A program made the translations under genes and the position numbers. A stretch of 64,000 nucleotides of DNA from positions 32,001 through 96,000 of IMG/VR virus record IMGVR_UViG_3300030419_003599; one strand, 5' to 3'. Below are positions 12,417 through 62,137 of the stretch, in pieces. The notes beneath the pieces were generated by a model, which made no database searches, was not told where the DNA came from, and saw only the letters and a program-made list of their open reading frames with translations. Numbering within the stretch: position 1 is the first letter of the stretch; the number at the start of each line of letters is the position of its first letter. Source of the stretch: a virus.

Positions 12417-12427
12417 GGTGTTACAAA

Positions 12428-33101: not shown

Positions 33102-33126
33102 TATATCACCTGTAGTCTGCGGAAAT

Positions 33127-36679: not shown

Positions 36680-36701
36680 ATTCTTCACCGTCTCTATCTT
36701 A

Positions 36702-36725
36702 TTTATTGCTGATGGTTCTTAAAGG
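36702..36725 (-). promoter_or_regulatory. Conserved 24-bp promoter-like motif, copy 1
   Basis: Minus strand CCTTTAAGAACCATCAGCAATAAA, ~23 nt upstream of the helicase start. Confidence 0.8.
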
Positions 36726-36755
36726 ATGTTGCCTCCACAGGGGGGCAGTACATAA

Positions 36756-37472
36756 TCATGTCCCACGGGACTGTTTGCTACGCCTCTCTATATGCACTGG
36801 TTCTTCACTGGTCAACACGCTCAGTAACCGTTCGCGTAGAGTAGAGCCTAGTCCTCTCACTTCTTTGAGAGACTGTTGGTGAATCATCTCTTCAATGCTC
36901 CCACATTTGTCTAGCAACTTCTCTACTAAGTCAGGCCCGAATCCGGGTATAGTGAGGAGCATATCTGCCCTCACATCATTCGTGGATACTCTCCTGAGAG
37001 CGCGGGCTCCATGCCTACGGGCACCCTTGTGGGATTTACTATGGAGTTTGACAATGAATTGGGCAGCCTCGCCATGGGTAGGAGTGTAGAATACTTGGCA
37101 ATCAAAATCAGCCATAATGCGCGCCAGTGTGCCAGTAAGTTCATTCTGTATTTTAGAGTAGGTAGATTTGTACCCGTTGTGTTTCATCTGTGTAAGATGC
37201 TTGGCCACTGTACCATGTACAACAAGGAAGAACCTTTCGTAGTTAGCGTCCATGTTATCCAGTTGCCTCCATAAATGGCCACTATGACTAGACTGGAATA
37301 GGTCTCCGATGCTTTTCGCCTCAACACATATCTTATCTCCCAACAGATAATCCCCTACAGGGAGATTTCTTCTAACGACTGATATGCCATTACGGTCAGC
37401 CCCTCGCTCAATCGCATTACATAGGGGACCCCTTTCATTGGTGTCAATCACCAACGCTGGTAAGGATTTCAT
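36756..37472 (-). CDS. XPF/ERCC4 (Hef-like) structure-specific endonuclease with HhH
   Basis: IDTNE...LPVGDY...VEAKS..DL and C-terminal IPGFG/VRGLG HhH motifs. Confidence 0.88.
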   Translation of the reverse strand: MKSLPALVIDTNERGPLCNAIERGADRNGISVVRRNLPVGDYLLGDKICVEAKSIGDLFQSSHSGHLWRQLDNMDANYERFFLVVHGTVAKHLTQMKHNGYKSTYSKIQNELTGTLARIMADFDCQVFYTPTHGEAAQFIVKLHSKSHKGARRHGARALRRVSTNDVRADMLLTIPGFGPDLVEKLLDKCGSIEEMIHQQSLKEVRGLGSTLRERLLSVLTSEEPVHIERRSKQSRGT

Positions 37473-38695
37473 TGAGGTTCTCCCCCTTCCACCATCGGGA
37501 GAGAATGTGAAGAGGTAATAATAGCACTAGTAGCAACGCTAGGATTCCCAGATGGAGCAGGGCTAAGGCTAGTGTCATCGCCCATATCACCACCGCCCAA
37601 AGCCTCCGCATGAATCACCCCAGTGCCGTCATGGAATTGACACTTTCCCAAGCAATACCCTTTACCGAACAAAGTAGCACAAGTAGGATGGTCATCGTAA
37701 GTCTCGGCTATGTGTCTCACATGTTTGCGAGTAGTGTTCTCATCCCAGTCCGCCCACCCAAGGGTACTCATGTAGTCTATTACCTCCCCGACAGCCTTCT
37801 CTCGCTCTGATTCTGTTTGCGCTGAACGGGGGAAAAACATACGCAAACGGTGGAGTAAGAACTGCGCTAGATACACCCTTGGATAATGGTCAGGGTTCCC
37901 CTCTTGGCACGCTACTGCGTTAAGGCATGGTAATATTTTCACGCCATCCATCTTGGCTGTGGCTATGTTCATTTTAGGGGAGTTCATTTTGAAGGGGGTT
38001 GGCGCTTGTTCTTTGACATTGAGAGTTGCCCCTTTCTCGCCGTAGTTGAAGTATCCTTTTCTTGGGCGAAGAGCGAGTTCCATGATATCCTCTTCCCCAA
38101 GACCCATCAATTCATGTGTTTTGAGGGGTATGCACCAAAGCCCTTTCTTGTCATTGTAAGAATTAGGAATGCGTATCATCCCTGCTGTATCAAAAGGTAC
38201 GGCTGGGTCTGAACAAGTTAGACCCAATTCATTTTCCCATCCCGACAGCAACCTACGGCCTGCTTCTTTCACACGCGAGACTTCTCTCCCGCTAGTCGGC
38301 ATGTGCGCTTTGTCAAGCGTTACCCATACATGGAATCCTCCACCACTAAACCAGACACCATGCTTAATGTCATTGTCAAGCAGGTATTGGTGTAGAGAGC
38401 GCACTTGCTGTAAGGGGATTCCCATGCCTACTTCTTTGCGAGAGCGGAAATCCTTGCAGTCAAAGTCCATGACGAAGTGACGAATAACCGGTGTGTTGTA
38501 ATCACATCTGTGGTGCTTGGGGGGACGGGTAGAACGATAGCCATAGACAGTCATATAGACATTGGCCAGCCCGTTCTTACCTCTCCAATATCTCTCTAAC
38601 TCGCCAGTGTTTGAGACAAGCCGCCTGTATCCTTTGGCTCCAGAGGCTTGAATATCTAGGACTTCTCTAGGGAAATCCAAAGTCAGGAGTCCCAT
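37469..38695 (-). CDS. Archaeo-eukaryotic primase, PriS-PriL(CTD) fusion
   Basis: AEP motifs DFD, SGGGFH, DTAGMIRIPNS; C-terminal LPCL...CATL...YCLGKC Fe-S domain. Confidence 0.85.
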   Translation of the reverse strand: MGLLTLDFPREVLDIQASGAKGYRRLVSNTGELERYWRGKNGLANVYMTVYGYRSTRPPKHHRCDYNTPVIRHFVMDFDCKDFRSRKEVGMGIPLQQVRSLHQYLLDNDIKHGVWFSGGGFHVWVTLDKAHMPTSGREVSRVKEAGRRLLSGWENELGLTCSDPAVPFDTAGMIRIPNSYNDKKGLWCIPLKTHELMGLGEEDIMELALRPRKGYFNYGEKGATLNVKEQAPTPFKMNSPKMNIATAKMDGVKILPCLNAVACQEGNPDHYPRVYLAQFLLHRLRMFFPRSAQTESEREKAVGEVIDYMSTLGWADWDENTTRKHVRHIAETYDDHPTCATLFGKGYCLGKCQFHDGTGVIHAEALGGGDMGDDTSLSPAPSGNPSVATSAIITSSHSLPMVEGGEPQ

Positions 38696-39009
38696 TTACC
38701 TATCTCCTGCTTATTCATTTCATGGATATACATACATATTTCACCCATGGCATCCATCATTTCCTCTGGACTCTCTATAAGAATAGAATTGAGATAGATG
38801 GTAATTTCAGGTTCTCCTGTCTCCATCTTGGACATTGAGCCGGGTAACGACTCAGGGAAGAACTCGTCAAGAGTAGTTTGGCGTGAGGTAAAAGCCTCCC
38901 ATGTACCCTTTTGTCCCATAGGATTGAACTTGAGACTAATAGTACCGTAATCTAACAATTCCTGTAGCAAGGCTTGGGCGACTACGCGCAAAGACTCAAC
39001 CTTACTCAC
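38683..39009 (-). CDS. Small protein with PIP box (QTTLDEFF)
   Basis: GTG start at 39009 after GAGGTGA; QxxLxxFF consensus. Confidence 0.65.
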   Translation of the reverse strand: MSKVESLRVVAQALLQELLDYGTISLKFNPMGQKGTWEAFTSRQTTLDEFFPESLPGSMSKMETGEPEITIYLNSILIESPEEMMDAMGEICMYIHEMNKQEIGKWDS

Positions 39010-39947
39010 TCTATCACCTCGCCGCCGCTGGTCCACGCCGGACAATAAGCCATTTGGTCACAGAAGGAACACCTGAAAGCATCTGCTATCATCTTGAAAT
39101 CCTTTTTGAGGTGCGCTCGCACCAAGTTCTCAAGCCTCTTCATCATGGCATTCATGCTTGTTTTCTTACATTCCTCATAATTCCAATGGGGGCCATCCCC
39201 ACCATTGATGCCACCCATAGGATATCTCCAACCGAAATGTGTGACGGGCGCATCTAACCCACGCTCGGCTAGCCACGCTTTACCTTCGGGGGTTTTCCTC
39301 TTCTCGTCCAACAAGAACTTGTAGACAGAGAGTTCAATTCGCATGGGTGAAGTCTTGTTACCTTTCCACTTACCGCTCTTCAATTCCATGAGGGCAAGTC
39401 CCCCCGCTTCGTCTTTGAAGATACGGTCTATGTAACCCCTAATTTCAATGGGCACTATCACGCCATCCACCTCTATTTCTGTGACAACATCTACCCATTG
39501 TTCGTTCCCCACAGGGAGGAAGTCTTCACCACGGGTAACTATGAGGCGTTCAAGTTCCCACTCTGCCAGTTGGCGGATGCCCTCTTCTTCACCGTGCATG
39601 TAAAGGTCGGTGCCTGCTGCTGTGTCTTCTTCGTGACGCTCCAGTTCTTCGGGTGGAGGGAAAGCCTTGACGGTCAATGCGAGAGCCTTGTGTTTTAAGC
39701 CCGCATCCACTGCCTCAAGGATACCATCCATGTGGTCAGGGAAGCGGTTGTAGAACTCTTCCAGTGCATTGTGGAGATTCACTCCACGAATGTGGTAGTC
39801 CTGTGTGTCAGAGGTAAGCCCTTGCATTTTCTCAAACTCATATTGCTTGGGGCACCAGTCAAAGGTGCCGAGAGCGGACTTAGTAATGCGCAGTATTTTC
39901 CCATCCTCTTGGTCAGGTGACCAGTTGTAAGTGGATATACTGCTCAT
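39006..39947 (-). CDS. Cas4-like PD-(D/E)xK exonuclease
   Basis: WCPKQ, GVNLH, RGYIDRI, ELKSG and C-terminal CSFC...C Fe-S ligands. Confidence 0.85.
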   Translation of the reverse strand: MSSISTYNWSPDQEDGKILRITKSALGTFDWCPKQYEFEKMQGLTSDTQDYHIRGVNLHNALEEFYNRFPDHMDGILEAVDAGLKHKALALTVKAFPPPEELERHEEDTAAGTDLYMHGEEEGIRQLAEWELERLIVTRGEDFLPVGNEQWVDVVTEIEVDGVIVPIEIRGYIDRIFKDEAGGLALMELKSGKWKGNKTSPMRIELSVYKFLLDEKRKTPEGKAWLAERGLDAPVTHFGWRYPMGGINGGDGPHWNYEECKKTSMNAMMKRLENLVRAHLKKDFKMIADAFRCSFCDQMAYCPAWTSGGEVIE

Positions 39948-40249
39948 TCGCCCACCTCATCAAGTAGGGCTTCAAGTTCTTGAATGACAAAGGACATATC
40001 GGAGTGTTCTTCTATCTCGTATCTCTCTTCCCAGAAATCCACAGCCTCACGCAACTTCGCCTCAAGCGTCTGCTCTCGTGTGCGCAGCCGCTGGACATAC
40101 ACAATAGCGTCCATCAACTCATGTTGTAAATGCTCCAACCACTCATCGTGGCTAAGGTCGCCGCGCTCCATTGTGACACCGTATTTACCCAATCCTACCT
40201 TTGCCCTCTCCTGTATCTTTTCGCATACTTCATCTTCTACTTTACTCAT
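39944..40249 (-). CDS. MazG-like/all-alpha NTP pyrophosphohydrolase-type phage protein
   Basis: ERAKVGLGKYG...WLEHLQHELMDAIVY pattern. Confidence 0.6.
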   Translation of the reverse strand: MSKVEDEVCEKIQERAKVGLGKYGVTMERGDLSHDEWLEHLQHELMDAIVYVQRLRTREQTLEAKLREAVDFWEERYEIEEHSDMSFVIQELEALLDEVGE

Positions 40250-40437
40250 TCATCATACCTCCAATTCTGTAACCCAGTCGTGCTACGCACTGGCTTAGGT
40301 GGAGTCACCTTGAGGAGCCTCTGCCCTCTATGATGGAGTAAATCGGGGAAGAACTCCAGAAGGGTAGTTTGGCGGGTCTTGATACCACCACATTCGCACA
40401 GGTGGTGCTCGCATTGTTTTTGCCACGGCCACTTCAT
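40246..40437 (-). CDS. Small Cys/His protein with PIP box (QTTLLEFF)
   Basis: ATGA coupling at both ends; CEHHLCEC followed by QxxLxxFF. Confidence 0.55.
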   Translation of the reverse strand: MKWPWQKQCEHHLCECGGIKTRQTTLLEFFPDLLHHRGQRLLKVTPPKPVRSTTGLQNWRYDE

Positions 40438-40793
40438 TCCAAGCCCTCCGCTGTGAAATAGATAGTCTCGGGGTAATCAGAAAAGTAGAACAATGTGGCT
40501 GGGCATAACCACCCCACCATCTTTACTTCTCCAATGCTGGCGCTGTACCAAGAGCCCCCGTCATCCATTGCTATTGACTTCGCTACATGGGCATCAGGGA
40601 AAGGGGTGTGACTGAACAAGAGTCGTGCCTTCTCCCAATTAGAGTGCCCATGCTTATCTCTCAAGGCTCCGTTGATTATCGCTGACGCTGTAGGGACGAA
40701 CGGCTCCTTAACAAGGTCGTGCTCATCATCATCAAATACCCATAAACCCCCATGACGATAGGCTTCTATCAGTTGTATGCTGTTGTTAATCAT
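40434..40793 (-). CDS. DUF6717-like protein
   Basis: YRHGGLWVFDD...LVKEPFV...GWLCPATLFYF...PETIY, recognised from memory. Confidence 0.65.
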   Translation of the reverse strand: MINNSIQLIEAYRHGGLWVFDDDEHDLVKEPFVPTASAIINGALRDKHGHSNWEKARLLFSHTPFPDAHVAKSIAMDDGGSWYSASIGEVKMVGWLCPATLFYFSDYPETIYFTAEGLE

Positions 40794-41059
40794 CCTTCAT
40801 CTACCTCCTCAGTAGGCGCAACCTGTATCTCAAATGCGCAGCGAGGACACCGTAAAATGCTAGGGTCTTCTGTCATGAGGGACTCAGGCTCTTCTTCAAT
40901 TCTCAATTCTAAGCACATCTCTCGCTCCCATATCTCACACACTGTCTTACGCTTAGCGTTGATAGAAGTGTTGAGAGAGCCTCCCCATTGTGTTGAGTCT
41001 TGCACAACATCTGGGTTTGAGCGGCTGTGCCACACTTTGTCGTTGGGATTTTCTGTCAT
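40790..41059 (-). CDS. Hypothetical protein (possible Zn ribbon)
   Basis: First gene after promoter copy 2; CEIW...C...CPRC. Confidence 0.55.
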   Translation of the reverse strand: MTENPNDKVWHSRSNPDVVQDSTQWGGSLNTSINAKRKTVCEIWEREMCLELRIEEEPESLMTEDPSILRCPRCAFEIQVAPTEEVDEG

Positions 41060-41074
41060 TTTATCACCGTTCTT

Positions 41075-41098
41075 TTTATTGTTAATGGTTCTTAAAGG
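41075..41098 (-). promoter_or_regulatory. Conserved 24-bp promoter-like motif, copy 2
   Basis: Minus strand CCTTTAAGAACCATTAACAATAAA. Confidence 0.8.
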
Positions 41099-41107
41099 GA
41101 TTTCTAA

Positions 41108-43507
41108 TCACCAGTACCTCTTAGGAGCAGGCTTTCCTACTGCCCGTTTAGAGTCCCAGCCCATGGCCTCTTCCATTACTGTGATTTTAGAGAGAATCAA
41201 TTTATCCACCATCGTAGTCCAATCAAGGGTGTATCCCTCCAAGTCACTTTCATCCATATAGGCTACTACTTTAGATGGGGGCTTACCTTCTGGGACATCT
41301 GAAATATATACCCACGGAACGCTATCCCCTTGCTTGAACTTGTCACCCTTACTGATATTTTGGTTGTAGTAAAAGGCGGCCTTGGCACCATTAGGCATGT
41401 GGGATGGGTTGTAGTCCTTCGGGTTCTTACCCAGCCTCGTCCATGAGGATACTGTATCTACACCGACCGACCCTTTGAGTAGAGAGGCTGCTAGAGGACG
41501 CACCGCTTCCACTATCTCGCTCTCCTCTTTGCCCTCACTGATGAGAGTAAAGATGAGGCTCTGCACCTCCTTGGATACAGGGGCAGCGTGGCTCGCTTTG
41601 TATTCATAACCGGCTACCTTCATCTGCCCAGCCTCCTCGGGCGGCCATGACTTGATACCGAAGTAACGGTTCTTCTTAGCCACCGTCCAGTAAGGGAAGT
41701 ACGCCTCTAGTTCTACTACCAACTCTCTTGAGTTCAATTCAGATTGCACCTTTTCTGTGAGATGCGCAGCGAGAGCAGGCGCTTCGTCTAAGGGAACTTG
41801 TATCATACTACTGTCAGTATGCCCATAGAGAGCGCGATAGCCCTGCTCCTCTGCTTCTTTGAGTAAGAAATGGATACTCTCACGGCCAACAGCAGTGATG
41901 CTACTGGCTATCTCTTGGGCTGCCCATCCGTATCCAGCGTGCGCAGTCATACCGTAGAGGCTGGCCATTACACGCTTGACTGCCTTCTGAAAAATATCCC
42001 ACCCAGTCCTTTCCTCTTCGGTCTTGGCTGCTTTCATGTTGGCTTTGAGTTGGTCTCTTAGGGCGAACAGTTCTTCCACGATTTGAGGTAGCAGACCCTT
42101 CTCGCGCTGGTTCCACGCTGTCCCATTGGGGAGCACTAGGATGGAGCCTTCTTCTAGTTCCTTAGAGGTAGGCTCACCGGGATAGAATGTTTCGTAAGAG
42201 AGGTTGTTACCGAGAATTATAGATGGGTATAGACCCTTGTAATCCACTACCCCTACCCCCTCGTAACGACCGGGGTCAGGTGGCGGGATGTATGCTCCCT
42301 TGACACTCCAACTATCCTTTCTGCGGGTTCGCGCTTTCCACTCCGTGCGCCTACCGATTAGGCCACGGAAGAACTTGGTTACATTGTGGGTGGATTCAAA
42401 ACACACACCACACAATCGTTGGAGAGCGAGGAAGAAATCAAGGGCGTGTAGCCGCTTGTCAATATCGCGAAGGAGTATTGTGTCTTGCACACAGTAATCA
42501 ACATAGTCCCAGAAGGATACATCAGGATTGCCGCCTTCCCATATTGTCCAGTCAGCAGCATTGACATCGTGCTTAGCGCCAATGCCTAGTTCTTGGGCGA
42601 TGGTATTCAACTTACGGTTGGGGAGTTGTCCCCTCCCGCTGTCCATCCATACCCTCTCAAACCCACTACCCCTGTTACCACGGGCAGCGCTATCAAACAC
42701 GATGCGCCCAAGGATGGGCTGGTCTGTATCGTCATAGTAGCCCTTGGTCTTAGGCGGTCTGCGCACCATACCGATAGGGCTGAGTCGGCGGAAATCCTCA
42801 CCGAGTCTTCTAACTAGGTGGGGCACATCAAAGTAATTAGCGCCGTGCGCTACTAGGACATCAGGGTCGCATTCATCCATGAACTGTATGAACGCTTCAA
42901 GTACAGCACCTTCGCTGCCAAACAAGCGCATTTCATAGCCGCCTACCCTGTCAATGTTGAGGGTCTCCGCACTAGGGTGACCCCTTTCTTTGAGGTCTTC
43001 TTGTTCTCTGTTCCACGCAAACACCACAGGGTATCCAAGTACGGAGTCATTCACACAGATGACTGTACAGAGTTCCTCTTTGGTACCTACATAGACAGCC
43101 TCAATATCAAAGTGCCATACCCGAGGAGTCCATTCAGGGAACTCTGGGAATGTGTCAATGAGATAGCGGTCTGCGTAACGCATGTCTGCTTCGTAGGTAC
43201 GAGAGAACTCATCGCGCATCCCTTTGATTTCGGATGGCTTGTGTGCTACAATCTTGACCAGTTTAGTGTGACCGTATTGGGGGTCAGGTACAGATACAGA
43301 AGTCTCACCCCACTCCACCCTTGAGCCGGGGAAGCGAGATAGAACCTTGTCTATGAGAGGTCGTCGTGTGTCTGCTGGTATCCAGAAGTAGGGTTCAAAC
43401 TCTTCGGGTGAGATATTCTGTTCAATGAGGTTACCTTCATCGTCGCGCCAGCGCGTGTAAAGCCATGCCCTCCCGTCATAGTCTGGATAGTACTGGTCAA
43501 TTATCAC
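41108..43507 (-). CDS. polB: Family B DNA polymerase
   Basis: Exo motifs FDIE, HGANYFD, YCVQD; polymerase motifs DYKGLYPS, KRVMASLYG, YGHTDS, KNRY. Confidence 0.95.
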   Translation of the reverse strand: MIIDQYYPDYDGRAWLYTRWRDDEGNLIEQNISPEEFEPYFWIPADTRRPLIDKVLSRFPGSRVEWGETSVSVPDPQYGHTKLVKIVAHKPSEIKGMRDEFSRTYEADMRYADRYLIDTFPEFPEWTPRVWHFDIEAVYVGTKEELCTVICVNDSVLGYPVVFAWNREQEDLKERGHPSAETLNIDRVGGYEMRLFGSEGAVLEAFIQFMDECDPDVLVAHGANYFDVPHLVRRLGEDFRRLSPIGMVRRPPKTKGYYDDTDQPILGRIVFDSAARGNRGSGFERVWMDSGRGQLPNRKLNTIAQELGIGAKHDVNAADWTIWEGGNPDVSFWDYVDYCVQDTILLRDIDKRLHALDFFLALQRLCGVCFESTHNVTKFFRGLIGRRTEWKARTRRKDSWSVKGAYIPPPDPGRYEGVGVVDYKGLYPSIILGNNLSYETFYPGEPTSKELEEGSILVLPNGTAWNQREKGLLPQIVEELFALRDQLKANMKAAKTEEERTGWDIFQKAVKRVMASLYGMTAHAGYGWAAQEIASSITAVGRESIHFLLKEAEEQGYRALYGHTDSSMIQVPLDEAPALAAHLTEKVQSELNSRELVVELEAYFPYWTVAKKNRYFGIKSWPPEEAGQMKVAGYEYKASHAAPVSKEVQSLIFTLISEGKEESEIVEAVRPLAASLLKGSVGVDTVSSWTRLGKNPKDYNPSHMPNGAKAAFYYNQNISKGDKFKQGDSVPWVYISDVPEGKPPSKVVAYMDESDLEGYTLDWTTMVDKLILSKITVMEEAMGWDSKRAVGKPAPKRYW

Positions 43508-44283: not shown

Positions 44284-44298
44284 GGTATCACCTCACAT

Positions 44299-44403
44299 AT
44301 ATTCATGACGGGAATGGGTTCATAGAGAAATAAGTACAAACTACTATTCCAGAATCGCAAAACATGATTTTCCCATTATTATCTGACAAACCGTCTTGAA
44401 TAT
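44299..44403 (-). other. Predicted structured RNA element upstream of the clamp gene
   Basis: Outer stem ATATTCATGACGG (44299-44311) / CCGTCTTGAATAT (44391-44403), 12 of 13 paired; inner stem AATGGG/CCCATT. Confidence 0.55.
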
Positions 44404-45538: not shown

Positions 45539-45548
45539 TCATATCACC

Positions 45549-46838: not shown

Positions 46839-46863
46839 TTTACCACCTCTTGGTTCTATTCTT

Positions 46864-46887
46864 TTTATTGCTGATGGTTCTTAAAGG
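46864..46887 (-). promoter_or_regulatory. Conserved 24-bp promoter-like motif, copy 3
   Basis: Exact CCTTTAAGAACCATCAGCAATAAA; also encodes the RFC C-terminus SFKNHQQ*. Confidence 0.8.
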
Positions 46888-47815: not shown

Positions 47816-47916
47816 GCTGTCACCTCTCTGCATTTGTCACACTTCCTAGTTCTATCATGAGACCAATGGACATGGGTATCACAGTATCTACACTTCTTAG
47901 CCCAATGCGTACTCAT
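47812..47916 (-). CDS. Micro zinc-finger protein, 34 aa (not in ORF track)
   Basis: MSTHWAKKCRYCDTHVHWSHDRTRKCDKCREVTA; RBS AGGTGA; ATGA coupling to RFC. Confidence 0.7.
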   Translation of the reverse strand: MSTHWAKKCRYCDTHVHWSHDRTRKCDKCREVTA

Positions 47917-47984
47917 GCTCTCACCTTTAGGGGGTTTTGGCTTAGGTAGGGGGGGAGGGGGGTAGGGGTATTTTTCTGTGGCAT
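47913..47984 (-). CDS. Pro-rich micro-ORF/leader peptide, 23 aa
   Basis: MPQKNTPTPLPPYLSQNPLKVRA; GGTGA RBS right after promoter copy 4; ATGA coupling; contains the C6-T-C7 tract. Confidence 0.5.
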   Translation of the reverse strand: MPQKNTPTPLPPYLSQNPLKVRA

Positions 47985-47999
47985 CTTTTCACCGTCTTT

Positions 48000-48023
48000 T
48001 TTATTGCTGATGGTTCTTAAAGG
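48000..48023 (-). promoter_or_regulatory. Conserved 24-bp promoter-like motif, copy 4
   Basis: Exact CCTTTAAGAACCATCAGCAATAAA; supplies the stop codon of the upstream gene. Confidence 0.8.
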
Positions 48024-49809: not shown

Positions 49810-49812
49810 ACC

Positions 49813-54327: not shown

Positions 54328-54352
54328 TCATTCACTTCCTTTTTCTATCTTA

Positions 54353-54376
54353 TTTATTGCTGATGGTTCTTAAAGG
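54353..54376 (-). promoter_or_regulatory. Conserved 24-bp promoter-like motif, copy 5
   Basis: Exact CCTTTAAGAACCATCAGCAATAAA followed by TAAGATAGA, as in copy 1. Confidence 0.8.
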
Positions 54377-54447
54377 GCACCACCTTTGGCGGGTTCCCGC
54401 AAATCTAGGGGGGGAGGGGGGGTAACAAAAATCTCGTGGGAGGTCAT
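54370..54447 (-). CDS. Pro-rich micro-ORF, 25 aa
   Basis: MTSHEIFVTPPPPLDLREPAKGGAL; TGATG coupling; contains the C7-T-C7 tract; stop lies inside promoter copy 5. Confidence 0.4.
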   Translation of the reverse strand: MTSHEIFVTPPPPLDLREPAKGGAL

Positions 54448-54557
54448 CACACCATCACCCCCGCGCAATGAGGGCAAGGGAGTTCGGGTGCAATAGCGTT
54501 CTTACCATCACACTTACCCGCTTTGCACAATAGTAGCGATAAAGGGAACTCTTTCAC
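54447..54557 (-). CDS. Micro zinc-finger-like protein, 36 aa (not in ORF track)
   Basis: MKEFPLSLLLCKAGKCDGKNAIAPELPCPHCAGVMV; GAGGTGA RBS; GTGA overlap with the upstream stop. Confidence 0.6.
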   Translation of the reverse strand: MKEFPLSLLLCKAGKCDGKNAIAPELPCPHCAGVMV

Positions 54558-55162
54558 GCTATCACCTCTCGTTCCTTCAACACACTCGCATCCAGTATCG
54601 CCATCTCCATCGGCACGGCCTCAACCTTGACGAGAGTGTCACCCGCACGGGTGCTCCATGTCATGTCCTTGATGTCCTGCACGACAGACTCAACTGCTTC
54701 TTTGTGCTTAGCATACTGCTCTTTCCAGTGCTTAGCCAGTTCCTTGTCGGTACTAATCGCCTTTTCTTGAGCCTCTATCATCGCATCAGCAATACGACCA
54801 TAGGCTGCTTGAGCAAGTGGCCCCACCTGCTCTGGTGGTGCATCGGCGGGCACTATCATCTTCACAAGCATGTCAAGCAAAACACCGACCTGCAATCCAG
54901 TTGGCACTTTGTGGGGGATGCGCTGTCTCACATCAGGGCAGCGCCGATAGCCGTGACCATCCGTCTTACCGCCTGTGTGGGGCTCAGTATTGAGTAGGAT
55001 TGTCGTACCAGTAAGCAGGTCTTGTACCAGCAACTGTGGGTCAGAGAAGGTATCACCTTCCCTGTCTGCGCGCGCCATCTCTTGCTTATGGATGACTGCC
55101 GCTAACTTGGAGAGAGCCTTACCTGCCCCGTCTGTCCATGGGAGTTCTGCCGCTTGCTTCAT
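54554..55162 (-). CDS. Hypothetical protein
   Basis: 202-aa ORF coupled to its neighbours. Confidence 0.6.
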   Translation of the reverse strand: MKQAAELPWTDGAGKALSKLAAVIHKQEMARADREGDTFSDPQLLVQDLLTGTTILLNTEPHTGGKTDGHGYRRCPDVRQRIPHKVPTGLQVGVLLDMLVKMIVPADAPPEQVGPLAQAAYGRIADAMIEAQEKAISTDKELAKHWKEQYAKHKEAVESVVQDIKDMTWSTRAGDTLVKVEAVPMEMAILDASVLKEREVIA

Positions 55163-56847
55163 GCCCCCACCCCTTTCTTACTGGGCAGGCCGATGTTACC
55201 TGCTCCTACATGCTCCTTGATTCGCATAACCTCTTCTATGTCGTAATCATGTGTGTAGGGTTGGCGTGATATCAAGTAGTCTTCAGGTAGCGTGTTATCC
55301 TTACACATGGTCGCTACTTCTTGAGGAGTGAATCTGTTAGGCGACCCTTCTGGGAATGGTATTCTGTATGTTTCATTCCGTTGTGTCACGAAAAGAGTCT
55401 CTAGCGGAATGCCGCCAGCCGACTTATAGGACGCAGTCAAATGTGGTGACGCGTCTATTATGAAATTAAGTGCCTTTTGCGGGTCGTTGAATATGAAAGG
55501 TAATGCATTCGTATTTCTGTTACCCCATTTGTCTATTGTTACATATGCTACTTGAAAGGCGATAGGGGTGTTCTCTTCGGCAGACTGCCAGTAACCACTC
55601 ATATTCCCGTCATGGATAAAGCACCAACCGTTTTCCACCTCACCATCTCTGCGCGCCAATTCTGCTATAACTGCATCACGCTCACGCTTCTGGATGATGC
55701 CAGCCCACCACTTCAAGCAATAATGACCACGGGTGCCGCGCTCTTCTTGAACGGAGCGGGTCATTTGTACATCTGTATCTTCCATCTCCCCAGTCTCATT
55801 ACCATCCTCATCTAACACCGCCCTTTGAATCATGACTGGCTCGCCTTCCTCATTTGTGACAGGCACTTCCACACTCTCATACCATGTTGAGCGCAACCAA
55901 TCACGACTCTCTGTTCGGCAACGCTGGGCTGACTTACTTAGTTCCTTGATTACATAGTCATCCTCAATGTGATTAGCCAAGAACTCGTCAGGGTCATCTA
56001 GGTCATAGAGATAGCGCATATGACCATTTGGATATCTAATCTCCCAACTGGCATCCCATTTTGCCCATTCCGTCTCTATGTATAGAGGGTTCTCATCATC
56101 ATCCACCCAATACACTGGCACAGTCTCTTTCACTGGACCATCGTGGTGCAAACAAGGATTCTCTTCCCAACCGCACTCCCCTTTGTATTGACCAGTGCTT
56201 CTACCGAAATAACCGAACAAATGCCACCACTGCTCATCAGTATAGTGCTCAAGTAGCCACCGGATTTTCTGACCATGAGTAGTGCTGACATTAGTTCCAT
56301 CTTCATTTTCCCACTTATCGTATGTTGGAGGCAGTTCCTCCTCACCATATTGTTCTTGGATGTTTTCCATTTGTATAGTGAAGTACTTTTTACCCCTCTT
56401 GATATCATTCCCCACACCTATTTCTTTGTGCCTTATGCTTCCTAGTGGCTCATGGGACTTTTTCCTCCAATGATATTGCGCCTTTGGGTTATGTCCTTTG
56501 AACTCTAACATGAAGTACTCAGTCTTGTAGCCCGAAAACATGTCTGAACCGCATGACATTTGGCTCCTCACATTTAGTGTCTTGTGAGTATAAAGATAGT
56601 TGTACCCAGCAGCGCGCCGAGTTCGGTGATTAACCAAGTCCTTGGTGCGCGCTGTACCATCTGCACCCACATCGTACAGTTGGTCAATAAGCGCCGCATC
56701 GCACGGTAGAAGGTCTTTCTCTTGCGCCCACCAACCGCGCTTCATGCCAATGGCCGCAGCCATCTCTTCTTGTTTCCGTTCATCTCTATCTGACACAACC
56801 CCACGGTTACGCCATTCACTCATGGTTGCTCTCAAATCTATGTACAT
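55159..56847 (-). CDS. Hypothetical protein
   Basis: 562-aa ORF, first after promoter copy 6; GAGGTGG RBS. Confidence 0.65.
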   Translation of the reverse strand: MYIDLRATMSEWRNRGVVSDRDERKQEEMAAAIGMKRGWWAQEKDLLPCDAALIDQLYDVGADGTARTKDLVNHRTRRAAGYNYLYTHKTLNVRSQMSCGSDMFSGYKTEYFMLEFKGHNPKAQYHWRKKSHEPLGSIRHKEIGVGNDIKRGKKYFTIQMENIQEQYGEEELPPTYDKWENEDGTNVSTTHGQKIRWLLEHYTDEQWWHLFGYFGRSTGQYKGECGWEENPCLHHDGPVKETVPVYWVDDDENPLYIETEWAKWDASWEIRYPNGHMRYLYDLDDPDEFLANHIEDDYVIKELSKSAQRCRTESRDWLRSTWYESVEVPVTNEEGEPVMIQRAVLDEDGNETGEMEDTDVQMTRSVQEERGTRGHYCLKWWAGIIQKRERDAVIAELARRDGEVENGWCFIHDGNMSGYWQSAEENTPIAFQVAYVTIDKWGNRNTNALPFIFNDPQKALNFIIDASPHLTASYKSAGGIPLETLFVTQRNETYRIPFPEGSPNRFTPQEVATMCKDNTLPEDYLISRQPYTHDYDIEEVMRIKEHVGAGNIGLPSKKGVGA

Positions 56848-56871
56848 TTATTCCACCTCTTGGTCAATTAC

Positions 56872-56895
56872 TATATTGTTGATGGTTCTTAAAGG
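56872..56895 (-). promoter_or_regulatory. Conserved 24-bp promoter-like motif, copy 6
   Basis: Minus strand CCTTTAAGAACCATCAACAATATA. Confidence 0.78.
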
Positions 56896-56921
56896 AAAAC
56901 TAGACTGGCGAAGGTGAGCAC

Positions 56922-57107
56922 TCATTCGCTATGATGCTCACAGTAATCACCATTTATCGCCAACTTGCGACAACGACTCCGCCTGTTGGTTATACCCATA
57001 CACCTATGGGATTCGGGGGCAGTCACTCTGCATTTGTGGCAAACATTTGATTTGGGGCGGGGTGTCATCGTGTTGTTGCAGATTCTACACTTATGCTGCC
57101 CGACCAT
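56922..57107 (-). CDS. Small double zinc-finger protein
   Basis: CRIC...CHKC and CMGITNRRSRC...YCEHH. Confidence 0.65.
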   Translation of the reverse strand: MVGQHKCRICNNTMTPRPKSNVCHKCRVTAPESHRCMGITNRRSRCRKLAINGDYCEHHSE

Positions 57108-59389
57108 TATTCAACCTCTTCTATCAGAGGGAAGCCCTCATGCTCATGCATCTTAGTGAGTAACGCTGATACAATACCAGCCCTCTCTACTTCATCCCCA
57201 CCATCTAACACAGATTCCACTACCGCCCTCTTCTCTTCAATGATGCGGTCAAAGTGTTCGTCAATCGTGCCTGCGCACGACAGATAAACAGCATGTACAC
57301 TGTCTGCTTCTTGCCCAATGCGGAGCACACGGTCTTCTGCTTGCACTTCCCATCCGGGCACCCACTCGCGCTCTACGAATATCACAGTATCAGCGGCGGT
57401 AAGAGTAATGCCTTCTTTGGCTGCTAGTGTGGAGCACACCAATACATCTAACCCCCCGTCTTGGAACTCTTCCACATTCTCTGCCCTTCTATGAGAGGGG
57501 GTCTCACCAGTGATTGTCTCTACTCGGAGCCCCCCCTCAAGGAGGCTTTCTTCAATAGCCTGTGATACATCACGGTGATGAGCATAAACCACTATTGGCT
57601 TACCTGTTAAGTCGTGGTAATCCATGACCCATTGGGTACAGAAACGCACTTTCATGCGTCCGCACACATGCCGCAAATCTGTGAGCATGTTAAGCACGAA
57701 CCCCGGCGGCATCCCTCCACCACTTTGGTAACGCTCATACCTAGACATCCAATCAAGCCTTGATTGCATATACTCTTTCAACTCACTACTCTCCATCTGC
57801 ACAGGTACGAACGAACGAGTCTTTGTTGGTAGTTCTTTGAGGACTTCCGCCTTCAAGCGTCTAATGGTGAAGTCACGAATGCGCTCATTCAACTCACGAG
57901 TGTTAGATGCGCCGCTGTAATCCCAACCGTACCCATTGTGGTAGGCGTTAGTATAACGCTGTTTGAATTGATATTCATTGGAGAACTGAGAGGGGCGTAG
58001 TAAATTGAGCGTAGTGTAGAACTCCATAGGTCTGTTAGTGATTGCTGTCCCACTTAAGCAAAGGACGGCTTCACAGGTGTTGGCTAGATGGAGAGTGGCT
58101 CTACTCCGTTTGGTGTCCTTGTTCTTCAAGTAGTGACTCTCATCTATGATGCACATATTCACCCCTGCTACTTGTAAATCATCCGCCCTTTTGTACATGA
58201 GGTCGTAATTGATGACGATGAAATCGGTGTCTTGTATGGCATCCTTCCCATTCTTTACCACCGAGCAGGTGGCGTCGGGTAACCATGCTTCTATCTCCTT
58301 AGCCCAATTGAACTTGACATTCGCTGGACAGACTACTGCCACCGGCCATTGCTCTGGGTGCAAAGCAGCGTAGGCAAGTGCCTGTATGGTTTTACCAATA
58401 CCCATATCATCGCCGATAAGACACCGACCACCAGCCAGTTCAGCGAAGGCCACTCCAGCATATTGGAATGGGTAGAGACTCTTGCCTTCGGGGAATACTT
58501 TACTCAAGCGTTCGGCGATGGAGGCTTTCAACTCCTCATCATCAAGGTCTGCTGCTTGAGACAGAGCCACTCTTTTGAGTGCCCCTTCCAGATACTCTTC
58601 TACTTCAGGCACTCCCTTGATAGCATCAGCCAATGGCTGATAATAACCATCCAGTTCTTTGAATAGGGTGTGCCCGTGTGACACAGGGATTGTCCAATGT
58701 TTCTCATCCATGTTGAACTTACGCCCGGGTATGCTCTTCACCTTCAAACGCACGCCATCCCTAAGTTCAGGGTCAGGGATGAACGGCCAATTGAGAATCA
58801 AATTATCCTTATTGATTGAAGCAGTAGCATCTACCTGCTTACGGGTGACCTTGGCTTTAGTGGAGGAGGGGCTTGGAGATGCAAACCCTTGGCTCCCATA
58901 CCCCTCCTCCGTTAAGAGCCAAGGTGAAAAATCAAAATTGTGATGACGCAGTATCTCTACTGCTGTTCGGATGACTTCTTCGTCATCCATAATAGACCAA
59001 ACCTTCATGCCTCTCTCAAATGTGCAGCGAGGCCAAGGCAAGGCGTGCTTTAACGCCTCTTGCGCCTCTTGATTATACGGCATGTGCAATGCTATGCGTG
59101 GGCCATATCTATCCTCGTACCGCATGACGCTGATAATTGGAGTGTCCGCTACTGGTTGTCGGCTAAACTCAAGCAAGGCTTCGGCATCAAACTCAATGCC
59201 TAGTTCCTTAACAATGTCTGGCAACTGGGTGTCGCTATATTTGACGAGCCTCTTGGCTGTGAGAATTGCCTGCTGAGTAGTGATGTGAGGTAAGAATGAA
59301 ACGCGGTAAAGCGGGAGGTAGTCCGGTTTGTTCGGGGCAATATGATTAACAAGTGACCGCGTAAGTTTTAGGATGGTGTCGTTATTCAT
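57107..59389 (-). CDS. SNF2-family helicase, HARP/SMARCAL1-like
   Basis: DDMGIGKT, DESH, SGT, QAEDRVLRIGQ; two HARP-like N-terminal segments; start ATG 59389. Confidence 0.9.
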   Translation of the reverse strand: MNNDTILKLTRSLVNHIAPNKPDYLPLYRVSFLPHITTQQAILTAKRLVKYSDTQLPDIVKELGIEFDAEALLEFSRQPVADTPIISVMRYEDRYGPRIALHMPYNQEAQEALKHALPWPRCTFERGMKVWSIMDDEEVIRTAVEILRHHNFDFSPWLLTEEGYGSQGFASPSPSSTKAKVTRKQVDATASINKDNLILNWPFIPDPELRDGVRLKVKSIPGRKFNMDEKHWTIPVSHGHTLFKELDGYYQPLADAIKGVPEVEEYLEGALKRVALSQAADLDDEELKASIAERLSKVFPEGKSLYPFQYAGVAFAELAGGRCLIGDDMGIGKTIQALAYAALHPEQWPVAVVCPANVKFNWAKEIEAWLPDATCSVVKNGKDAIQDTDFIVINYDLMYKRADDLQVAGVNMCIIDESHYLKNKDTKRSRATLHLANTCEAVLCLSGTAITNRPMEFYTTLNLLRPSQFSNEYQFKQRYTNAYHNGYGWDYSGASNTRELNERIRDFTIRRLKAEVLKELPTKTRSFVPVQMESSELKEYMQSRLDWMSRYERYQSGGGMPPGFVLNMLTDLRHVCGRMKVRFCTQWVMDYHDLTGKPIVVYAHHRDVSQAIEESLLEGGLRVETITGETPSHRRAENVEEFQDGGLDVLVCSTLAAKEGITLTAADTVIFVEREWVPGWEVQAEDRVLRIGQEADSVHAVYLSCAGTIDEHFDRIIEEKRAVVESVLDGGDEVERAGIVSALLTKMHEHEGFPLIEEVE

Positions 59390-59391
59390 GC

Positions 59392-59754
59392 TTAGCACTG
59401 CCTGTAAATATAGATGTAGCCCTTGAGGTCTTCGTCTTCTATTTGGTAATAGTCCATCAGCAACTGTTGCGCCACCCAATCCCAATCAATTGTATTGACA
59501 ATGAATGCAGGCAGGGCTTCAAGTTCAGTGTAATAGATTTCCTCGCACATCTCCTGAGCCCAATCCTTGAGGTCGCCCTTATAACCTTCCCACTCAAACG
59601 CTTCTTCTGCGTCCTCATAGGTAGAGAAACCAATCTCTTCTATGGCTTGGATGTGATGGTATAAGCAGCCGCAGAGGTCATCTTCCTCTTCACAATGCTT
59701 ACAGTATCTTTTGTTTATCCATCGCCCAACATTGTCTATTTCTTTTTTGCTCAT
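59392..59754 (-). CDS. ArdA-like antirestriction (DNA-mimic) protein
   Basis: Acidic; YKGDLKDWAQEMCEE...LPAFIVNTIDWDWVAQQLLMDY...YIYR resembles the ArdA C-terminal domains. Confidence 0.6.
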   Translation of the reverse strand: MSKKEIDNVGRWINKRYCKHCEEEDDLCGCLYHHIQAIEEIGFSTYEDAEEAFEWEGYKGDLKDWAQEMCEEIYYTELEALPAFIVNTIDWDWVAQQLLMDYYQIEDEDLKGYIYIYRQC

Positions 59755-59999
59755 TCTTTCACCTCAAATCCATTTCTCTCCAAGCACTCATCACAACAGT
59801 ACTTACCATCGGGATGACAAATATCATATTGCTGATACCATTCAAGTTCTTCACGCAACCGCTTGACTTCTGCGAGCAGTAGTGGTGCGTCTTGCATGAG
59901 TTCTTTGTCTACATCATTCAATGTCGCAGGTAATCCAATCCAGTCTATCCACACCCAATGAGGGGGCGTATGTCCTTCATATTTGTCTGTGTCAATCAT
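59751..59999 (-). CDS. MIDTDK-array paralog 1
   Basis: MIDTDKYEGHTPPHW...DAPLLLAEVKRLREE. Confidence 0.75.
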   Translation of the reverse strand: MIDTDKYEGHTPPHWVWIDWIGLPATLNDVDKELMQDAPLLLAEVKRLREELEWYQQYDICHPDGKYCCDECLERNGFEVKE

Positions 60000-60313
60000 T
60001 CTTCTTCCTCTCCATGATATTGTGCTTCTATCCCTTTAGCAAGGTCAGCATAAACTTCACACATCTGTTCCATCCATCCTTCTCTTCCCATGTAGTTTTC
60101 ATTCCACCACACTTGAACTGTCCAAGCCATGCTATTCTGTATGCTCTCAAGTTTTTCACGCAACCGCTTGACTTCTGCGAGTAGGTCTTTGTATTCATCT
60201 CGGTAGTATCGCAATATGTCATAGTTGCCTTCGGATATATCCACGCCAACTTCAATCTCTCTCAATACATCATCAAACTCAATCTGTCCTTCGTGTTTGT
60301 CTGTGTCAATCAT
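59996..60313 (-). CDS. MIDTDK-array paralog 2
   Basis: Start reset to ATG 60313 (GGGGTGA RBS); MIDTDKHEGQ...LLAEVKRLREK. Confidence 0.75.
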   Translation of the reverse strand: MIDTDKHEGQIEFDDVLREIEVGVDISEGNYDILRYYRDEYKDLLAEVKRLREKLESIQNSMAWTVQVWWNENYMGREGWMEQMCEVYADLAKGIEAQYHGEEEE

Positions 60314-60314
60314 T

Positions 60315-60500
60315 TCAATCACCCCAATATGCAATATCTTCTTCGTCAAGACCATCGTAGCCTTGATGCTTCATGGCAATCAATTTGTCAGCGCAGTAAT
60401 GATGATACGGTGTTCCGCATGTAGTCATCGTTGCTTCCCCTTCAATTGCTTCTTCGCAGTAAGCGCAGGTGTGTCCTTCGTGTTTGTCTGTGTCAATCAT
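60315..60500 (-). CDS. MIDTDK-array paralog 3 (LIM-like zinc finger, no B module)
   Basis: MIDTDKHEGHTCAYC...YHHYC. Confidence 0.7.
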   Translation of the reverse strand: MIDTDKHEGHTCAYCEEAIEGEATMTTCGTPYHHYCADKLIAMKHQGYDGLDEEDIAYWGD

Positions 60501-60787
60501 TCTTCATTCCTCCAAGGCATCTCCGCTACCAATTCATCAAGTGTCATGTGTGGCTCACCTACAATGTGTAGGTACAATTCATCAGCGACAAGTCGCAACC
60601 GCTTGTACGCTTCAAGGAGAAGTGGTGCGTCTGCGGCAAGTTCAGCATCAACCGTTGTTGCGCCTACTATGTCAAACAGATACGCTTCTGCATCATCTCC
60701 CATTGGTTCAGACCGAATGGTATTGTTGCTGTGCATCCTATACCACGGCGCAGGTGTATGTCCTTCGTATTTGTCTGTGTCAATCAT
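60497..60787 (-). CDS. MIDTDK-array paralog 4
   Basis: MIDTDKYEGHTPAPW...DAELAADAPLLLEAYKRLR, resembling the HTPGPW/AAAPELL phage family. Confidence 0.75.
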   Translation of the reverse strand: MIDTDKYEGHTPAPWYRMHSNNTIRSEPMGDDAEAYLFDIVGATTVDAELAADAPLLLEAYKRLRLVADELYLHIVGEPHMTLDELVAEMPWRNEE

Positions 60788-61029
60788 TCAATCCTCTCCT
60801 TTATTTCCGTAAGAGTTAGTCCTTCTTTCAACGCCAACTCTAAAGCAGGGTGAGGTTGCCTTTGTTCAACATAAATCATCACTTCACGCAATCGTTTGAC
60901 TTCTGCGAGTAGTTCATCGTAAGTATTGAGGTGTCTTTTCCATGCCGCTTCATCTTCTTCACACATTGGGTCTGCAATGAAGTCAAGCAATAGTTGCCTC
61001 ATGTTTTGGTATTTGTTTGTGTCAATCAT
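60784..61029 (-). CDS. MIDTDK-array paralog 5
   Basis: MIDTNKYQNMRQLLLDFI...DELLAEVKRLRE. Confidence 0.75.
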   Translation of the reverse strand: MIDTNKYQNMRQLLLDFIADPMCEEDEAAWKRHLNTYDELLAEVKRLREVMIYVEQRQPHPALELALKEGLTLTEIKERIE

Positions 61030-61250
61030 TCAATCACCTTCTCCAATTCGTTTCGCCAATGTCGCCAATCCTCATCCATACCTTTAGCGATATTGTCAAT
61101 CGCTTCACGCAACCGCTTGACTTCTGCGAGCAGTTCATCAAGCATTGTTAGTTTGTCTTTCCATGCTCCCTCATCCACTTCATCACTCGCAGAATCTATG
61201 AAGTCAAGAAATAGTTGTCTCATGTTTTCGTGTTTGTCTGTATCAATCAT
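61026..61250 (-). CDS. MIDTDK-array paralog 6
   Basis: MIDTDKHENMRQLFLDFI...DELLAEVKRLRE. Confidence 0.75.
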   Translation of the reverse strand: MIDTDKHENMRQLFLDFIDSASDEVDEGAWKDKLTMLDELLAEVKRLREAIDNIAKGMDEDWRHWRNELEKVIE

Positions 61251-61480
61251 TCTTCTTCACCATATCCTTCAATTGAACTTGCACAAGTATAACCCAACTC
61301 AACCTTTAGCCTTGCAGTTATGTATGCAATAGATTTCCAACCAATGTTTTCGCTTTCACGAATCATTAGTTCTGTTTTTTCTCTAAGCAAGTCCTCATAC
61401 TGTTGTTCAAGGTCGCTTTCACTCATGCTGGTTATCTCAAAGTTATCTATCCATAGTTCTATCTCTTCTGCTATATTCAT
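61247..61480 (-). CDS. Hypothetical protein
   Basis: ATGA coupling at both ends. Confidence 0.6.
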   Translation of the reverse strand: MNIAEEIELWIDNFEITSMSESDLEQQYEDLLREKTELMIRESENIGWKSIAYITARLKVELGYTCASSIEGYGEEE

Positions 61481-61647
61481 TCTTCCTCATCCTCACATTC
61501 TATGTCTATGTGTTCAGCATCAAACAAGTAACCATCAAAAGGATGGCCTATTATTTCATGGACTACCCATAGTTTTGCTTCAATATCTTCTGCGCATTCT
61601 GCTTCAACTTCTCCAGTATAAGTCACTGTGACTGTGAAGGTTTTCAT
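61477..61647 (-). CDS. Small acidic protein, 56 aa (not in ORF track)
   Basis: MKTFTVTVTYTGEVEAECAEDIEAKLW...ECEDEEE; GAGGTG RBS; ATGA overlaps at both ends. Confidence 0.7.
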   Translation of the reverse strand: MKTFTVTVTYTGEVEAECAEDIEAKLWVVHEIIGHPFDGYLFDAEHIDIECEDEEE

Positions 61648-61883
61648 GCTGGCACCTCATCTTTTTTGTGATACCATATTGTTTGGTGGCCATCATATAA
61701 GACAATAATAATATCATCTTCATCAATACCCCAATTATTCATTAAGAACGGGACATTAGTTTCTGGGCAGGATGATGCAAACATAACATATCCTTTTGCT
61801 GGCGGGTCAAGTTTATCTCTAGCATCCCATAGTATTGTTTCACAAAAACTACCTTGTTGCATTAAGTGATAATACTCACTCAC
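61644..61883 (-). CDS. Hypothetical protein
   Basis: Coupled small ORF. Confidence 0.6.
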   Translation of the reverse strand: MSEYYHLMQQGSFCETILWDARDKLDPPAKGYVMFASSCPETNVPFLMNNWGIDEDDIIIVLYDGHQTIWYHKKDEVPA

Positions 61884-62083
61884 TCTTCTTCACCTACCTC
61901 TGTCCGCACTTCAGGTATAGCGAGGGGCTCAATGCGTAGCACGAATTGTGCGCCAATCCATGATACTATGATTCCTTCTCCATCTTCGGTCATACCTATG
62001 CGTTTCAAGTGCTCGTCATCTTGACACCTATGAAGTGCCTCATGTACTCTACCCAACATTATCCGTGCTATTGCATCCATCAT
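61880..62083 (-). CDS. Hypothetical protein
   Basis: First gene after promoter copy 7. Confidence 0.6.
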   Translation of the reverse strand: MMDAIARIMLGRVHEALHRCQDDEHLKRIGMTEDGEGIIVSWIGAQFVLRIEPLAIPEVRTEVGEEE

Positions 62084-62113
62084 CTATCTCTCCAACAGTT
62101 TTCTGTCAGAGTT

Positions 62114-62137
62114 ATTATTGTTGATGGTTCTTAAAGG
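62114..62137 (-). promoter_or_regulatory. Conserved 24-bp promoter-like motif, copy 7
   Basis: Minus strand CCTTTAAGAACCATCAACAATAAT; heads the operon that contains the MIDTDK array. Confidence 0.78.

Follow-up and report, generated by a model that had tools for sequence, protein, structure and literature searches.

A TATA-like box with a conserved spacer is the probable core promoter of the non-structural units in a magrovirus-like virus record

We examined a repeated 24-bp motif in the IMG/VR record IMGVR_UViG_3300030419_003599, a linear virus record of 108,650 bp. The window is the whole stretch of 64,000 nucleotides that was analyzed, and it covers positions 32001-96000 of the record. Copies of the motif are given as window positions unless marked as genome positions, which are those of the record. 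Since its gene content matches that described for magroviruses by Philosof et al. (PMC5434244), the virus is probably a magrovirus-like tailed virus of Marine Group II (Poseidoniales) archaea. The motif is a real, non-random feature and very probably a promoter. We read it, with a probability of about 0.78, as the archaeal core promoter of every early/middle (non-structural) unit of this virus. It has a TATA-like box and a conserved TATA-to-start spacer, lacks a conserved B-recognition element (BRE), and is limited to the non-structural strand. An initial annotation, made from the window sequence alone, had proposed an archaeal-virus promoter class with these properties, and the class held up.

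The seven sites named in that annotation were recovered. A scan of the window with the 24-mer at up to 3 mismatches returned exactly 36702, 41075, 46864, 48000, 54353, 56872, and 62114, and 100 shuffles returned zero matches. Four copies are exact and three contain one mismatch to the degenerate pattern, and all are on the minus strand. The predicted promoter copies, with the genes that they appear to head, are as follows.

36695-36725, minus strand: exact 24-mer at 36702-36725; predicted start at 36695; heads the genes for a 469-aa protein, a 203-aa protein, the thermosome, TFB, and a 71-aa protein.
41068-41098, minus strand: ATTAAC variant, 10 nt past the stop codon of the family B DNA polymerase (PolB) gene; predicted start at 41068; heads an operon for an 89-aa protein, DUF6717, small open reading frames (ORFs), a PD-(D/E)XK nuclease, a 120-aa protein, a primase-like protein of 408 aa, and an ERCC4 nuclease.
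46857-46887, minus strand: exact copy over the last 7 codons of an RFC-like gene; heads the genes for proteins of 429, 51, 327, and 254 aa and PolB.
47993-48023, minus strand: exact copy; heads the gene for the RFC-like clamp loader together with two tiny ORFs, of which one is a Zn-ribbon.
54346-54376, minus strand: exact copy, with a T5 run and a C7TC7 tract ahead of it; heads the genes for a DUF932 protein of 529 aa and proteins of 124, 608, 244, 470, and 127 aa.
56865-56895, minus strand: CAACAATATA variant; heads the genes for proteins of 562 and 202 aa and a small Zn-ribbon ORF.
62107-62137, minus strand: CAACAATAAT variant; heads a series of small genes and an SNF2 helicase (57107-59485).

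The whole record contained 12 copies, all on the minus strand (genome 68702, 73075, 78864, 80000, 86353, 88872, 94114, 98401, 99975, 103808, 104643, and 106355). The same scan found 0 copies on the plus strand and 0 in the 1-64 kb morphogenetic block, in line with the earlier remark that the motif was not seen in the plus-strand structural block. Five of the 12 copies are in a hypervariable region of small genes. Copies in the full genome and in the related genomes are co-oriented and ahead of gene starts; they are not in random orientation or in the middle of genes. The distance from the 3' end of the 24-mer to the start codon is 15-31 nt, as first annotated, and a Shine-Dalgarno sequence (GGTGA, GAGGTG, or GGAG) usually lies between the two. 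Between one copy and the next, the genes overlap or are closely spaced, and the copies thus appear to head operons.

The shared core of the 12 copies is (C/T)CTTTAAGAACCAYYARCAATA, and the copies form two subclasses, which can be abbreviated as CAGCAATAAA and CAACAATAGT. Subclass 1, CAGCAATAAA(A/T)AAGA, precedes the replication operons (genome 68.7-86.4 kb). Subclass 2, CAACAATA(G/A/T)T, precedes the small-gene region (genome 88.9-104.6 kb). The motif had also been described as overprinted on the end of the upstream ORF in three cases, and two of these were found in the window. The RFC-like gene ends with ...FKNHQQ* inside copy 46864, and the stop codon of a 127-aa ORF falls in the TAA of copy 48000. 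A third case was not found in the window. Outside the window, a crude ORF call (55 aa) runs into the copy at genome 104643.

Two syntenic genomes were retrieved from IMG/VR, G001 (91 kb) and G007 (101 kb). They are 63-77% identical to this virus in protein and 65-73% in DNA. An IMG/VR scan with the exact motif gave 0 matches, and a looser pattern found G001 and G007 together with chance or unclear loci (L128, L130, L133, and L136). A metagenome scan with a pattern that was too loose gave 1 true relative (L192) among the 80 loci listed. Searches for PolB loci gave only G001 and G007. G001 contains 5 copies on a contig that begins inside the block, and G007 contains 7. All are co-oriented with the genes and are in orthologous places. 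The identity between orthologous copies, by segment, is as follows.

Upstream 40 nt: 37%.
Positions 1-12: 100%.
Positions 13-24: 71%.
Positions 25-29: 40%.
Downstream: 38%.

Motif positions are counted from the first C. The difference between the motif and its flanks indicates that the motif is under purifying selection. Identity among the copies is 96% for positions 1-12 and 27% for the sequence upstream of CCTTTAAG, and the initial annotation was right that this upstream sequence is not conserved. The identity of positions 13-24 is 0.88 within a genome, 0.71 between orthologs, and 0.70 between non-orthologs, from a small sample. The copies thus seem to evolve in concert, which would fit either a shared reader or gene conversion among the copies. 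Two hints suggest that copies may act as recombination boundaries. The unit bounded by copies 56872 and 54353 contains the 562-aa gene (window 55159-56847, minus strand), which shares 29% identity with its counterpart in G007; neighboring genes reach 64-75%. The copy-rich 15-kb region of small genes (genome 91.2-106.4 kb) has no DNA similarity to G007.

The TATA-like box was compared with promoters of the likely host group. The reference was the upstream regions of 29 tRNA genes from two Poseidoniales metagenome-assembled genomes (MAGs), aligned with a Gibbs sampler. About 17 of the 29 regions contain CCG, then 3-5 nt, then C[CA]TT[CG]AAG (for example, CATTCAAGAAC, CCTTCAAAAAC, CCTTCAAGGGG, and CTTTCAAAGGG). 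The box begins ~34 nt before the mature 5' end of the tRNA. The viral CCTTTAAG is a box of this type with one central change (compare the host boxes CCTTCAAG, CATTCAAG, and CTTTCAAA), and from this resemblance it appears to be a host-type TATA box. The host-type CCG was found 3-5 nt upstream of the box in 0 of the 12 viral copies, and these copies therefore lack a BRE of the host kind. The motif was looked for in host genomes as well. The exact 12-mer CCTTTAAGAACC was absent from 5 candidate host MAGs. A 21-mer with up to 2 mismatches gave 3 matches in 301 Poseidoniales genomes and 3 with a reversed control, which is chance level.

Conservation extends past the 24-mer to a pyrimidine-purine (Y/R) step at positions 30/31. 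This step is present in 12 of 12 copies here and in 23 of 24 across the three related viruses, compared with 0-9 of 24 at 20 neighboring offsets. The dinucleotide itself varies (TA, TG, CG, or CA), and orthologous copies share the same one 31% of the time. The class is conserved but the exact dinucleotide is not, as expected for an initiator. With position 31 as +1, CCTTTAAG lies at -30 to -23, which is the canonical archaeal geometry. The initial annotation had expected transcripts to start near the AATAAA end of the motif. The Y30/R31 step instead predicts a start 7 nt downstream, at position 31, with leaders of mostly about 9-24 nt. For the seven window copies, the predicted minus-strand starts are 36695, 41068, 46857, 47993, 54346, 56865, and 62107. 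Under this prediction, several mRNAs would begin exactly with GGTGA or GGAG. The mRNA from copy 41075 would begin with GGTGA and have a 9-nt leader, and at genome 104643 almost no leader would remain.

These parts suggest the following model. Positions 1-8, (C/T)CTTTAAG, would be the TATA box at about -30 to -23 and would be bound by host TBP. Positions 9-22, AACCAYYARCAATA, would be a conserved A-rich spacer at -22 to -9 that is private to this virus lineage. Positions 23-29 are variable. Positions 30/31 would be the pyrimidine/purine initiator, with transcription from position 31, and the leaders, mostly of 9-24 nt, would start with the Shine-Dalgarno sequence or a little ahead of it. The spacer probably compensates for the absent CCG element. 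It may do so by strengthening TFB/polymerase binding and DNA opening, or a virus-specific factor may bind it and time these units. Neither a viral RNA polymerase nor a viral TBP was found, by sequence searches that could miss very divergent enzymes. The host polymerase is therefore the likely enzyme, and it would transcribe the motif-driven units. Transcription by the host polymerase is also the general view for archaeal viruses (PMC5569661).

Several observations weigh against the core-promoter reading. The 24 copies come from three related genomes and are not independent observations. The host TATA/CCG consensus was drawn from 29 tRNA promoters in two MAGs. A start at position 31 puts the Shine-Dalgarno sequence at the very 5' end of several mRNAs. 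One copy in G001 lacks ~6 nt of the spacer, which a model of rigid spacer reading does not predict. This shortened copy retains a C/A step at 30/31, where it falls on its ATG.

The virus encodes a TFB of its own, as the initial annotation had supposed when it named a viral TFB among the possible readers of the spacer. The gene is complete.

32178-33158, minus strand: virus-encoded TFB with a Zn-ribbon, a B-reader, and two cyclin repeats (TFIIB repeats), E = 7e-39.

The database form of this protein is 307 aa and would start near 33101. The gene follows the thermosome gene and is the last but one of the operon driven by copy 36702, which is the most downstream motif unit. Because its gene is near the end of the last motif-driven operon, the first round of transcription cannot depend on the viral TFB, except if the protein is packaged. 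The helix for BRE recognition, GVTEVTIRNRYKE, and the RGRSIEG loop match those of host-type TFBs exactly. The B-reader and linker of viral-type TFBs are distinct (GAEWRVF, DWQNKDYSGK, and RMRKWQ, compared with GPEWRAFD, GWKNKDSYGK, and RLRKWQ in the host). Homologs of the viral type form a large group, with clusters of 700-1500 member sequences, and the TFBs of sister viruses are only about 65% identical. That the viral TFB helps to turn on the late plus-strand genes is no less probable than a role at this motif. Viral TFBs have been reported for some rudiviruses and Asgard viruses (PMC13700489). The magrovirus literature that we searched contains no mention of promoters or TFB.

An alignment of viral-type TFBs reached further than the PolB searches and led to more distant relatives. 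None of these has a site with a position weight matrix score of at least 14 bits for this motif. They contain boxes of their own. In G012 (110 kb), 8 of 8 sites are exact TTTATATGCATCT on one strand, followed by C.AA..CCACC. The Y/R step falls at 30/31 in 8 of 8, and the starts are G-rich and resemble a Shine-Dalgarno sequence. The box TTAAATACCTTTGA occurs on one strand in 5 copies in G013 and 4 copies in G014. L276 contains TTTATAATCCTCAACGG twice, and L265 contains TTTATATC, then 21 nt, then TG, at the head of the orthologous operon. TTTATA(T/A) boxes lie ahead of the p469-like gene in L265 and L276, with TG at 30/31 in both. The boxes of the relatives at the orthologous place are TTTATAT(G/C) or TTTATAAT. 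The sequences after the TATA box are specific to each lineage (AACCAT, CATCTC, CTTTGA, and CCTCAACGG). The other lineages share the geometry with a sequence of their own, and a lineage-specific conserved stretch after the TATA box therefore appears to be general in this virus group.

Two side observations were made in these genomes. In the G012 promoters (L279-L286), CCACC at positions 20-24 is complementary to GGTGG at +1 to +5. The pair may form an inverted repeat across the start site to which a protein binds; it is also conceivable that CCACC hides the Shine-Dalgarno sequence, though only in read-through transcripts. G013 (L266:1-770) contains about 22 copies of GAGCGAGCCA with a period of ~35 nt at one end of the locus, an array that possibly resembles iterons or an origin.

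Three readings of the spacer fit the core-promoter model, and the evidence cannot separate them. The spacer may be optimized for the host machinery, it may be read by the viral TFB, or it may be an operator for a viral protein. For the host machinery, an A-rich spacer would melt easily where host tRNA promoters are GC-rich. A reading of the spacer by the fast-evolving TFB of the virus is in our view quite doubtful. The TFB would then work much as phage sigma factors do, with a specificity for viral promoters that lies past the TATA box, whether BREd-like or set by the B-linker/B-reader. This reading would account for the presence of a complete TFB with a distinct B-reader/linker and only ~65% identity between sister viruses, for viral promoters without the host CCG element, and for the finding that each TFB-encoding lineage has its own post-TATA sequence. 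The homogenization of positions 13-24 (0.88 within a genome against 0.71 between orthologs) is also in its favor. The late position of the gene leaves this TFB no first-round role unless it is packaged and suits a switch to late genes equally well, and the BRE-recognition helix and RGRSIEG loop of the protein are those of host-type TFBs. The broader proposal, that the early/middle program of Poseidoniales tailed viruses runs on BRE-less promoters with their own diverged TFB (packaged or in positive feedback) reading the post-TATA sequence, is likewise rather improbable. If it is true, the TFB would provide a sigma-factor-like private promoter code in Archaea that co-evolves by lineage. An operator at -22 to -9 for a small viral DNA-binding repressor or activator that switches the early/middle units, like the role proposed for Aca8-type regulators in Sulfolobales viruses, is unlikely. 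The conserved sequence around the promoter core in Sulfolobales viruses has been interpreted as a regulator site (PMC11065993). The lineage-specific spacer, homogenized within each genome, would suit an operator, and the early region is rich in unassigned small proteins, including Zn-ribbon and coiled-coil ORFs. However, the motif has neither the inverted nor the direct repeat that most dimeric regulators need, the conserved part directly adjoins the TATA box, and no helix-turn-helix, ribbon-helix-helix, or winged helix-turn-helix domain was found among the ORFs scanned.

The remaining explanations would replace the core promoter. It is hardly credible that the motif is a promoter for an RNA polymerase encoded by the virus, be it a T7-like one or a two-barrel enzyme packaged in the virion. 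A contiguous conserved block of ~22 nt that ends near the start does resemble the promoters of single-subunit polymerases, and the virus encodes giant unassigned proteins of 5526, 1863, and 1191 aa. Against this, six-frame searches with PF00940 and PF00623 were empty (the PF00940 control was uninformative), the D-x-DGD metal-binding motif was in no frame, and Pfam/PHROG scans of all ORFs of >700 aa gave other assignments or none. The first 8 nt also match the host TATA box, and the start spacing is canonical for archaea. It is very unlikely that the motif is not a promoter and serves instead as an RNA processing or leader signal, or as a DNA recombination or replication site between operons. 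The homogenization of copies within genomes, the diverged operon bounded by two copies (29% aa identity, compared with 64-75% in its neighbors), and the wealth of copies in the hypervariable 91-106 kb region would all fit such a site. Few copies have a consistent terminator ahead of them, and read-through transcripts would therefore contain the motif. An RNA signal is opposed by a motif folding energy of zero, by z-scores of flanked copies that scatter around 0, and by the lack of any Rfam or tRNA match. No role of this kind explains the co-orientation, the fixed distance to the Y/R step, the TATA likeness, or the TTTATA boxes at the orthologous place in the relatives. As a separate candidate, a bacterial sigma-70 promoter (-35/-10 hexamers with 16-18 nt spacing) was rejected: no consensus site was present at any copy, and 26 were found in the window compared with 28 expected.

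The canonical archaeal core promoter consists of a BRE, a TATA box, a proximal or -10 A/T element, and an initiator, and it is read by TBP, TFB, and RNA polymerase. The motif resembles it in its 8-bp TATA-like box, in its A/T-rich sequence around -11 to -7, in its Y/R step at the canonical distance, and in its place ahead of operons. It differs in having no upstream BRE and in a nearly invariant spacer, which is normally variable. The early promoters of T4 and T5 have an extended consensus and are read by the unmodified host polymerase. They too have a longer and tighter consensus than the host, occur in numbers on one strand, and need no viral factor for the first round; unlike the motif, they have the bacterial sigma-70 architecture. 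A downstream TFIIB-recognition element (BREd) was reportedly described in eukaryotes by Deng and Roberts in 2005. The invariant AACC right after the TATA box would lie at about -22 to -19, a position at which TFIIB/TFB touches DNA with its first cyclin repeat. The BREd sequence is unrelated to AACC here, and we know of no established archaeal BREd consensus.

Two groups of archaeal viruses are closer comparisons. In SIRV1 and SIRV2, a GTC element right after the TATA box was found in most promoters and proposed as cis-regulatory (Kessler et al. 2004, as summarized in PMC5569661). The likeness is a virus-specific conserved element just after the TATA box. The rudivirus element is 3 nt beside a canonical BRE/TATA, whereas 14 nt are conserved here (AACC is invariant), with no BRE and with a mesophilic marine euryarchaeon as the probable host. 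In Sulfolobales viruses, early and anti-defense genes are preceded by a strong promoter core that is surrounded by consensus regulatory sequences specific to each virus (Bhoobalan-Chitty et al. 2024, PMC11065993). As here, those genomes contain many near-identical copies that are conserved beyond the core and differ in sequence from virus to virus. Their copies have a BRE and a TTTAWATA core, often have inverted repeats in the flanks, and mostly precede single small genes. The motif of this virus has no BRE, shows conservation beyond the TATA box on the downstream side alone, lacks repeat symmetry, and also heads long replication operons.

Neither Poseidoniales (Marine Group II) archaea nor their viruses have been cultured, although both are abundant in surface waters of the ocean. 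The motif gives exact start-site predictions that could be used to map viral transcription units and the stage of infection in metatranscriptomes. It may also help to pick out early and hypervariable genes, whose likely functions are host takeover or anti-defense. Bhoobalan-Chitty et al. used promoter motifs in this way (PMC11065993). The copies would be a natural set of strong BRE-less archaeal promoters with a constrained spacer, each paired with a viral TFB. They would also offer a tractable system for the re-coding of promoter specificity in TBP/TFB/Pol II-like machinery.

The gene content of the record is divided by strand. The minus-strand block encodes PolB, an SNF2 helicase, a group II chaperonin (the thermosome), and a DUF932 protein. 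It also encodes an RFC-like clamp loader, a primase-like protein, an exonuclease, the ERCC4 and PD-(D/E)XK nucleases, and the complete TFB. The plus-strand block encodes the major head protein and the tape-measure protein, followed by a 5526-aa ORF. The record contains both an HK97-type head module and an archaeal-type replication module (PolB, RFC, and thermosome), and its host-like genes are nearest to Poseidoniales/Thermoplasmatota, as in magroviruses. The best full-length matches of PolB among deposited viruses are haloarchaeal tailed viruses, at ~23% identity. The best named archaeal match of the thermosome is from Poseidoniaceae (43%), with other archaeal groups close behind at 41-42%. 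The two top-scoring thermosome contigs (55% and 46%) carry a Parvibaculum label. The viral TFB is 58-70% identical to Thermoplasmatota TFBs. The giant ORF is as follows.

12413-28993, plus strand: 5526-aa ORF after the tape-measure gene, with a weak Laminin_G_3 match only and without a polymerase signature.

G001 and G007 contain homologous open frames of about 5700 aa.

Other promoter-like sequences were found outside the 12 copies. The sequence CCTTTACA, with TA before it and T30/G31 after it, occurs at two plus-strand intergenic sites, genome 3691 and 38390 (window 6390-6397). It is a weak lead for a late promoter and is not conserved in G001 or G007. Near genome 106.47 kb, the divergent region contains a similar sequence on the plus strand, CTTAAAGAAGAACAATACA; it is not conserved in G007 and was dropped.

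Two small Zn-ribbon-like ORFs fall below the ORF cut-off of 60 aa. One is 34 aa (CxxC...CxxC) at window about 47826-47930 on the minus strand. The other is 36 aa (CxxxxC...CxxC) at about 54444-54554 on the minus strand, and it sits in a stretch that is 86% identical to G001, which is above the coding average. The tract CCCCCCTCCCCCCC occurs twice on the minus strand (window 47949-47962 and 54408-54421), compared with 0 expected. One tract is inside the tiny ORF downstream of promoter 48000. The other is noncoding and lies just upstream of promoter 54353. The tract is G-rich on the plus strand and could form a quadruplex.

A 38-nt block (L015:10492-10530, genome about 106.49-106.53 kb, outside the window) is identical to the bases with which the G007 contig begins. 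The minus and plus blocks diverge from the intergenic region that contains it, and the hairpin-like GGGGAGCATGGTGCTGTCC and the palindrome AGCGTGACGCT come after it. The block is a candidate origin or genome terminus.

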